32,000 nucleotides of DNA from assembly GCF_900187275.1 (NCBI RefSeq), contig NZ_LT906458.1, positions 1,110,001-1,142,000 on the forward strand, given 5' to 3'. The position numbers and the translations under genes were made by a program. Of this stretch, positions 26,958 through 27,248 are shown in pieces; within the stretch, counting starts at the first letter, position 1; each line of letters begins with the position of its first letter. The DNA is from Pasteurella multocida. Its GTDB lineage: Bacteria; Pseudomonadota; Gammaproteobacteria; Enterobacterales; Pasteurellaceae. The notes below the pieces were generated by a model that did not search any database, was not told the DNA's origin, and saw nothing but the letters and a program-made list of their open reading frames with translations.

Positions 26958-27248
26958 ATGAAAAAATTGGCAACTTTAGCCGCATTAGCCGGTGCATTAA
27001 CCATGGCAGCAACAGCGCCTGCACAAGCAGAAATGAAATCAGCAGGGAAGGCTGAGCAATGTGTCGAAGGTAAATGCCTAAAAACCAAAGCGGCTGAAGG
27101 TAAATGTGGTGAAGGTAAATGTGGTGCACATGACCACAAAGCAAAAGCGGCAGAAGGTAAATGCGGTGAAGGCAAATGTGGTACACATGATCACAAAGCA
27201 AAAGCCGCTGAAGGTAAATGTGGCGAAGGAAAATGCGGTTCTAAATAA
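26958..27248 (+). CDS. hvfA: Secreted Cys-repeat RiPP precursor (HvfA/bufferin-like, EGKCG repeats)
   Basis: 96 aa with RBS GAGGAG. Signal peptide MKKLATLAALAGALTMAATAPAQA|E, then six EGKCG motifs plus EGKCL and EQCV. It lies immediately upstream of a DUF692/DUF2063 gene pair. Confidence 0.85.
   Translation: MKKLATLAALAGALTMAATAPAQAEMKSAGKAEQCVEGKCLKTKAAEGKCGEGKCGAHDHKAKAAEGKCGEGKCGTHDHKAKAAEGKCGEGKCGSK
27090..27239 (+). repeat. 57-bp coding tandem repeat (2.6 copies) encoding AAEGKCGEGKCG(A/T)HDHKAK
   Basis: Copies lie at 27090..27146, 27147..27203 and 27204..27239 (partial). The differences between copies are almost all synonymous third-position changes. Confidence 0.9.

Follow-up and report, generated by a model that had tools for sequence, protein, structure and literature searches.

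What is encoded by a short open reading frame (ORF) built largely of cysteine-containing pentads, and is its repeated peptide an object of selection? The ORF in question lies at 26958..27248 (+ strand) of a 32 000 nt stretch of Pasteurella multocida DNA (contig NZ_LT906458.1, positions 1,110,001 to 1,142,000; hereafter the window). A reading of the letters alone (the original prediction) had described it as a secreted precursor with three EGKCGEGKCG doublets on a 57-bp repeat, kept by purifying selection and separated by His-Asp-His-Lys linkers that could supply metal ligands. We conclude with high confidence, extending to the explanation as a whole, that the gene is P. multocida hvfA, the ribosomal precursor of an oxazolin-type metallophore of the class termed 'captophorins'. 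P. multocida is an important animal pathogen that is also able to infect humans, and its carriage of an oxazolin system with a strain-variable number of copper-binding units is useful background for work on virulence and copper homeostasis.

The gene is already known: its architecture is published, and RefSeq gives the P. multocida copies a name. The layout read in the original prediction is not a new insight but the published HvfA/oxazolin design, and the three-block architecture, modification of six Cys only, an N-terminal disulfide and family-wide variation in repeat number have all been published already. We found no publication naming both P. multocida and HvfA or oxazolin. What is added here beyond the published picture is incremental only, namely a clade-specific, selected His-Asp-His (HDH) linker, unit-number polymorphism within P. 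multocida, a conserved hairpin and a promoter-like motif, and none of these points changes the understanding of the oxazolin system.

Gene identity and operon context

Retranslation reproduced the ORF, signal peptide and repeat layout of the original prediction. The gene is preceded, 7 nt before its ATG, by a Shine-Dalgarno sequence read from the DNA (GAGGAG, 26945..26950, +) and specifies a 96-amino-acid precursor, assigned by homology to the oxazolin-type 5-thiooxazole metallophores through the family model NF050188 and alignment with HvfA of nontypeable Haemophilus influenzae (NTHi). All of its parts lie on the + strand. Residues 1-24 (MKKLATLAALAGALTMAATAPAQA; 26958..27029) form a Sec signal peptide with an MKK n-region, a hydrophobic core and a predicted cleavage site at AQA|E, a call based on homology to NTHi HvfA, with whose signal peptide it aligns residue for residue. 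The N-terminal core (residues 25-45; 27030..27092) carries C35 and C40 in a CxxxxC arrangement. The remainder, as read from the sequence, consists of repeat block 1 (AEGKCGEGKCG with C50 and C55; 27093..27125), linker 1 (AHDHKAKA; 27126..27149), repeat block 2 (AEGKCGEGKCG with C69 and C74; 27150..27182), linker 2 (THDHKAKA; 27183..27206) and repeat block 3 (AEGKCGEGKCG with C88 and C93; 27207..27239), followed by Ser-Lys-stop. The eight cysteines are thus the CxxxxC pair and one in each of six EGKCG units. By Tandem Repeats Finder, 27087..27239 is periodic at 57 bp (score 243; 88 % matches over 2.7 copies), with shorter periods of 15 bp nested inside. Two minus-strand ORFs that overlap the repeats (26845..27201 and 26933..27175) were set aside as artefacts of reading the repeat.

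HvfA passes the NCBIfam equivalog NF050188 at 163 bits against a cut-off of 95, with residues 1-96 covering the 96-position model, and NF050137 (KCGExKCG_twice) matches three stretches of it (78.3 bits, cut-off 19.5). It is 75 % identical to NTHi HvfA, an alignment in which the signal peptide, the CxxxxC pair and the three blocks are colinear and C35/C40 fall on NTHi C38/C43; the NTHi sequence used was machine-read from Table S6 of PMC12668002, is one residue short of the published 95 and may contain small errors. The proposal of a secreted precursor of a peptide that is synthesized on the ribosome and modified after translation (RiPP) is borne out by this alignment, the first 24 residues of the NTHi protein being removed experimentally. 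No Pfam family matches the precursor, including DUF2282, the bufferin precursor family. The closest HvfA proteins come from P. multocida, the DNA on either side of hvfA matches P. multocida contigs at 96.7-99 % identity, and HvfB is 96 % identical to that of Bisgaard Taxon 45. The NCBI name for the P. multocida alleles is 'oxazolone/thioamide-modified RiPP metallophore HvfA'.

The gene order is hvfX-hvfA-hvfB-hvfC on a single strand, with all four products above curated NCBIfam cut-offs. hvfX (26466..26915, +) encodes a DoxX-family membrane protein (Pfam DoxX 2.9e-23; NCBIfam HvfX family 142.6 bits, cut-off 80). hvfB (27310..28233, +) encodes a maturase belonging to the oxidative enzymes that depend on multinuclear non-haem iron (MNIO; DUF692), matching Pfam MbnB_TglH_ChrH at 1.6e-96 and the NCBIfam HvfB family at 366.4 bits (cut-off 360), and hvfC (28223..28942, +) encodes a DUF2063/RiPP recognition element partner protein (Pfam DUF2063 and NGO1945_C; NCBIfam HvfC 173.1 bits, cut-off 142). 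Two other assignments were rejected: a bufferin-type maturase, HvfB scoring 252.3 on the BufB equivalog (cut-off 310), and a methanobactin type, HvfB scoring 39.7 bits on the MbnB equivalog (cut-off 325) and the precursor having a Sec signal and pentad repeats.

Among characterized systems, NTHi oxazolin shares with P. multocida the hvfX-hvfA-hvfB-hvfC operon, a 24-residue Sec signal, the CxxxxC pair, three AEGKCGEGKCG blocks and a C-terminal GSK. It differs in its linkers and period, which are ADKAKS and ASKPKA, without His, on 17 residues in NTHi but AHDHKAKA and THDHKAKA on 19 residues in P. multocida, and an extracytoplasmic function (ECF) sigma/anti-sigma pair adjoins the P. multocida operon, unlike the NTHi system. 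The Buf_EGKCG/oxazolin family of PMC12452194 and the Lys-Cys captophorin group of PMC12668002 correspond to one another and comprise signal-peptide precursors with EGKCG repeats and MNIO, DUF2063 and DoxX neighbours, as here; both describe variation between species, whereas the range of three to six units within the one species P. multocida is not mentioned in the available parts of either. Fontiphorin (FonA) and gonophorin (NgoA) resemble oxazolin in that an MNIO with a PME1 partner turns EGKCG-type or related units into 5-thiooxazoles, giving products that bind copper. FonA differs from P. multocida HvfA in having units arranged 2-3-2 (seven sites), another N-terminal region and no DoxX gene, NgoA also has EGSCG-type units, and both are without HDH linkers. 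The bufferins (BufA1 of DUF2282, and BufA2) are likewise Sec-exported, MNIO-modified, thiooxazole-based and copper-binding, with biosynthetic gene clusters that include DUF2063 and DoxX genes and ECF sigma/anti-sigma control, but belong to another precursor family with folded domains in place of tandem pentad repeats. Methanobactin (MbnA/MbnBC) resembles oxazolin in being an MNIO product that chelates Cu(I) through heterocycles derived from Cys; it differs in its chemistry, which is of the oxazolone/thioamide type, and in having a leader peptide where HvfA has a Sec signal and no repeats of EGKCG.

Expected maturation and metal binding

HvfA of NTHi (NTHI1441) has 95 residues, of which 24 form the signal peptide, and contains eight Cys and three AEGKCGEGKCG motifs (PMC11252979, Manley 2024). 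HvfB and HvfC install six modifications of -4 Da on the repeat Cys only, whilst C38-C43 form an unmodified disulfide, and each single Cys-to-Ala mutant loses one modification (PMC11252979). The same work reported that the first 24 residues of HvfA are removed upon expression in Escherichia coli, that HvfBC still acts on heavily truncated HvfA, that oxazolin binds approximately one Cu(I) per pair of post-translational modifications (PTMs) and that H. influenzae requires oxazolin for host-cell invasion (PMC11252979). The modification was later reassigned from oxazolone/thioamide to 5-thiooxazole (10.64898/2026.06.05.730506). In subsequent captophorin work, oxazolin is now grouped with bufferins, fontiphorin and gonophorin under that name, and the 5-thiooxazole products of the NTHi, Neisseria gonorrhoeae and Fontimonas peptides have in common a change of -4 Da per Cys, absorbance at 302-305 nm and Cu(I) binding. 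On whether unit number sets a fixed number of metal sites, as the original prediction had it, the literature is divided: the copper sites have been described as discrete, with one Cu(I) per PTM pair (PMC11252979), versus a suspected stochastic, aggregating network in the later work.

By analogy, the P. multocida precursor would be made with its Sec signal peptide, and HvfB with its partner HvfC would oxidize the Cys of each EGKCG unit to a 5-thiooxazole at C50, C55, C69, C74, C88 and C93. C35 and C40 would probably form a disulfide and stay unmodified; export would remove the signal peptide at AQA|E, and the heterocycles would then bind Cu(I). Only those six Cys are therefore expected as metal-binding heterocycles on the H. 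influenzae precedent; modification of all eight was ruled out on the NTHi data, in which the N-terminal pair is an unmodified disulfide.

Several points weigh against this account. The exact 96-amino-acid protein was absent from a collection of 15 billion proteins, and the peptide chemistry of the P. multocida product is, by analogy, wholly transferred from H. influenzae, N. gonorrhoeae and Fontimonas. As regards the geometry of the metal sites, AlphaFold2 (12-sequence alignment) applied to the unmodified precursor gave a predicted local distance difference test (pLDDT) score of 42, with no confident fold and no secondary structure, although a low score fits a flexible Gly/Lys-rich peptide. 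In the fontiphorin system, FonBC left a peptide with a single EGKCG unit unmodified in vitro, which makes modification of the singlet unit in the common 2-1-2 allele of P. multocida uncertain; in contrast, single Cys-to-Ala mutants of HvfA retain five modifications (PMC11252979). Finally, the frequencies given below for the P. multocida alleles, which are named by their unit patterns (EGKCG units per block; 2-2-2 in the window), are counts of contigs in public data and do not represent a curated strain survey.

Selection on the repeats, unit number and the HDH linker

The original prediction held that the repeat peptide is conserved whilst its DNA has drifted, and its codon counts proved right in the 57-bp register. 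Of the five differences between copies 1 and 2, four are synonymous (gct/gca, tgt/tgc, ggt/ggc and gac/gat) and one is an Ala/Thr change; partial copy 3 shows four differences from copy 1 and six from copy 2, none of which alters an amino acid. The drift is a property of the 57-bp copies and does not extend to block 1, whose two 15-mers are identical in DNA. dN/dS between copies (Nei-Gojobori), a check that the prediction had proposed, was 0.05 for copies 1 and 2 and 0 for comparisons with copy 3. Parsimony gave eight synonymous events and one non-synonymous event, against an expectation set by synonymous sites being 20 % of the repeat (binomial p 2e-5, or 1e-3 if 35 % of mutations are synonymous). 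Comparison with the Taxon 45 orthologue, also 2-2-2, is free of picking units by their peptide motif and gave 32 synonymous and four non-synonymous differences in 291 nt, with a ratio of 18:1 within the repeats. In 14 genes, ranging from Pasteurellaceae to marine Gammaproteobacteria, the doublets of any one gene differ at 1-5 of 30 nt whilst their amino acids hardly change, a count that is partly circular as the units were picked by motif. The proposed purifying selection is thus upheld both within the gene and against Taxon 45: the EGKCG units and linkers are kept constant in peptide whilst third codon positions drift.

Repeat number, which the prediction had suggested may vary between strains, does so, with seven further unit patterns in P. 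multocida. The commonest allele is 2-1-2 (91 amino acids; P0121 on 319 contigs, P0122 on 90 and P0125 on 9), followed by 2-2 (77-78 amino acids; P0123 on 71, P0131 on 22), 1-2 (72 amino acids; P0004 on 15), 2-1 (72 amino acids; P0124 on 9), 1-2-2 (91 amino acids; P0135 on 2), 3-1 (77 amino acids; P0005 on 1) and 3 (63 amino acids; P0129 on 1). The 2-2-2 allele of the window is rare, with one further record (P0133, a Logan contig of 1594 bp) that also has the Thr linker. That record reads past the stop to 118 amino acids, as would follow from a 1-nt change in the run of A bases there (TCTAAATAA), whether a sequencing error or a real frameshift. Since several of the alleles sit on complete or near-complete chromosomes of 2.3-2.4 Mb, assembly collapse is unlikely.

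Synonymous differences between copies served as barcodes for units gained and lost in five P. multocida allele loci. In the 2-2 allele the linker is a hybrid (gca cat | gat cac aaa gca aaa gcc gct), which marks a crossover between linkers 1 and 2 that deleted 57 bp, and the 1-2 allele has lost one more 15-mer. The block-1 15-mer occurs as three identical copies in the 3-1 allele, where everything between the ends of units 2a and 3b is deleted, and the 2-1-2 allele is without unit 2a. The block-3 synonymous markers (GGC; GGA..TGC) were present in four of the five loci, the other being the 3-1 locus (L026), which has no block 3. Array length therefore varies within P. multocida by in-frame slippage or unequal recombination of 15 bp (one unit) or 57 bp (block plus linker), so that the number of modifiable Cys ranges from three to six between strains. 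Although the three copies are old, this species has no fixed unit number and is not constrained to 'three doublets'. Patterns vary among relatives as well: P. canis has 2-1-2-2, Taxon 46, [H.] felis and Pasteurella sp. PK-2025 have 2-2-2-2, and Haemophilus-type sequences have 2-2, 1-2-2 and 1-1-2, whilst in the 120 closest homologues 2-2-2-2 leads with 62, with many odd patterns besides.

These results bear on the notion that the repeat arose by recent slippage, or is low-complexity DNA that does not code, with no selection on a peptide. The identical 15-mers of block 1 suit it, and the strain alleles prove that slippage occurs, and to that extent the original claim of 'not recent slippage' fails. 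It stands for the age of the copies, as most of the copy-specific barcodes are common to the P. multocida alleles. With 57-bp copies 88 % identical, eight of nine differences between them synonymous, the orthologue comparison at 18:1, a full-length match to a curated family and a conserved operon, the notion is already refuted by the counts, and we give it next to no credence.

The linkers are where P. multocida departs from H. influenzae. Eight Pasteurella-clade genes were compared (P. multocida, two Taxon 45 strains, Taxon 46, P. canis, P. oralis, [H.] felis and Pasteurella sp. PK-2025), in which 19 of the 20 linkers read x-H-D-H-K-(K)-A-K-A with codons switching between cat and cac and between gat and gac. 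Such codon turnover with fixed residues indicates selection and argues against recent homogenization. The HDH linker is a Pasteurella-clade-specific version, two residues longer than the plain Lys/Ala linker of H. influenzae, and is selectively maintained in the clade. No His-rich linker was present in the Mannheimia, Histophilus, Actinobacillus, Neisseriaceae and marine homologues compared, and His occurs in 32 of the 326 linkers of the 120 closest homologues. The original prediction had reckoned that orthologues with unconstrained repeat number and linker His would speak against it; repeat number does vary within and between species, whereas HDH is kept inside the clade and not outside it. 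Because the characterized H. influenzae peptide is without linker His, this residue is not needed for the copper chemistry of the family. The HDH linker may act as an auxiliary metal ligand or as a spacer tuning metal binding, which would be its likeliest roles.

A stronger version of the first role would make the HDH(K) linkers integral extra ligands, so that each block plus linker would provide either a site of mixed thiooxazole/His type or an additional His2Asp site able to take Cu(II), Zn or Ni, with altered stoichiometry or specificity. We consider this possible but doubtful. The persistence of H-D-H in the clade despite synonymous codon turnover is in keeping with it, as are the expanded His-rich linkers of some relatives (GHDHKHPHK, GHDHKHDNK) and the tendency of linker His elsewhere to stand second after the doublet (12 of the 23 outside P. 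multocida sequences, a tally of small numbers and non-independent sequences). Yet NTHi oxazolin binds Cu(I) without linker His, merely 22 of the 120 closest homologues have any, and the Lys and Ala positions are as conserved as His in the eight clade genes, so the constraint may not be His-specific. Conversely, the linkers could be neutral spacers, uniform through shared ancestry and concerted evolution of the array rather than selection on His, which we judge unlikely. Linkers do vary freely between genera (ADKAKS/ASKPKA, ATSSEPKAT, AAGKKASKAG, GDKAKKA), their length stays within 4-15 residues in all but three of 326, and many proteins contain near-identical linker copies of the kind that repeat turnover produces; however, the H, D and H codons differ synonymously between copies and orthologues whilst the residues are fixed, differences that recent homogenization would erase, and the linkers of the window and Taxon 45 differ by five synonymous changes and one non-synonymous change (hand count from codons). 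It is more improbable again that the Lys-rich linkers are processing or recognition sites, at which a protease frees short doublet peptides or HvfC makes contact, with repeat number setting the dose of product and not the sites per molecule. The richness of the linkers in Lys and Ala would allow for this, but full-length modified HvfA lacking only its signal peptide was recovered from E. coli, HvfBC modifies heavily truncated HvfA too, and the operon has no protease gene by ORF list, Pfam or NCBIfam. A further, speculative idea, to which we assign a low probability, is that the Pasteurella-clade HDH linkers constitute a second class of metal site, for example for Cu(II), Zn(II) or Ni(II), between the thiooxazole Cu(I) sites, and that the in-frame 15-bp/57-bp polymorphism in addition makes hvfA a contingency-type locus tuning metal capacity between strains or hosts.

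Regulatory elements and observations in relatives

A promoter-like motif, GTAAGAAA-N16-TCGACTAA, is located upstream of hvfX (26168..26196, +) and occurs once in the window against 0.01 expected. Of 12 Pasteurellaceae loci, 10 have the exact motif 5' of hvfX, in each case on the operon strand, including two occurrences each in P. canis, P. oralis and Pasteurella sp. PK-2025, and A. ureae has a version with one mismatch. It is a candidate ECF-sigma-dependent promoter of the hvf operon. A relaxed match, GTAAC-N16-CGACTAA (29122..29149, +), lies inside the anti-sigma gene on the opposite strand and may be a chance occurrence or an antisense promoter.

Convergent with the operon are genes for a 66-amino-acid anti-sigma factor (29009..29209, -; NCBIfam anti-sigma family 52.9 bits, cut-off 50) and an ECF-type sigma factor (29210..29761, -; NCBIfam PRK12530 312.9 bits, cut-off 264). 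This pair is syntenic with hvf in six of seven Pasteurella-clade loci, the other being [H.] felis, and in Cardiobacteriaceae, Alysiella, Neisseria shayeganii and Eikenella. Six loci, those of [H.] felis, A. ureae, Mesocricetibacter, Canicola, Histophilus and a short Haemophilus metagenome-assembled genome (MAG) contig, do not have it within 4 kb and still carry the promoter-like motif or its one-mismatch version. By analogy with SigF/NrsF, which control bufferin operons, the pair probably regulates hvf, with the motif upstream of hvfX as a candidate target of the adjoining ECF sigma factor.

Between the hvfA stop and the hvfB start is a terminator-like stem-loop with an 11-bp stem (27260..27284, +), for which the predicted RNA fold has an energy of -18.3 kcal/mol (z -3.1). 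Its stem (GCTGGTGTAA/TTACACCAGC) recurs with at most 1-2 base changes in eight other Pasteurellaceae loci folded, Histophilus somni excepted. All of the Pasteurellaceae, Cardiobacteriaceae and Alysiella loci folded have a predicted hairpin at this position, the stem being of another sequence in Histophilus, the Cardiobacteriaceae MAG and Alysiella, and none was predicted in the marine Kangiellaceae and Catenovulum loci folded. Its placement suggests an intra-operon attenuator or mRNA stabilizer that would raise the precursor relative to the enzyme.

Divergent from hvfX are genes for an OmpR-type response regulator and a 2CSK_N histidine kinase (23958..26034, -), and the response regulator gene is found in the same place in the loci of Taxon 45, Taxon 46, P. 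canis, P. oralis and Pasteurella sp. PK-2025. ARAGORN identified a tRNA-Leu(GAG) at 29883..29968 (-); an Rfam search of the whole window at gathering thresholds returned zero matches, missing even this tRNA.

Some relatives depart from the P. multocida arrangement. A KCG-based search of the fetched DNA found no EGKCG-type ORF beside the HvfB homologue in Neisseria shayeganii, Eikenella and Acinetobacter (L016, L017 and L018), where the precursors may have other units, such as the EGSCG type of NgoA, or lie outside the fetched DNA. In Canicola haemoglobinophilus (L009, about 3614..3960), hvfA appears to be split into two ORFs within a linker, which may reflect a frameshift, a pseudogene or an assembly error, and the N-terminal region of its product has a DGHHHC stretch. 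The signal peptides of the two Alysiella HvfA sequences (L013, L014) end in LAACGE, which is lipobox-like and makes a lipoprotein-anchored precursor possible.

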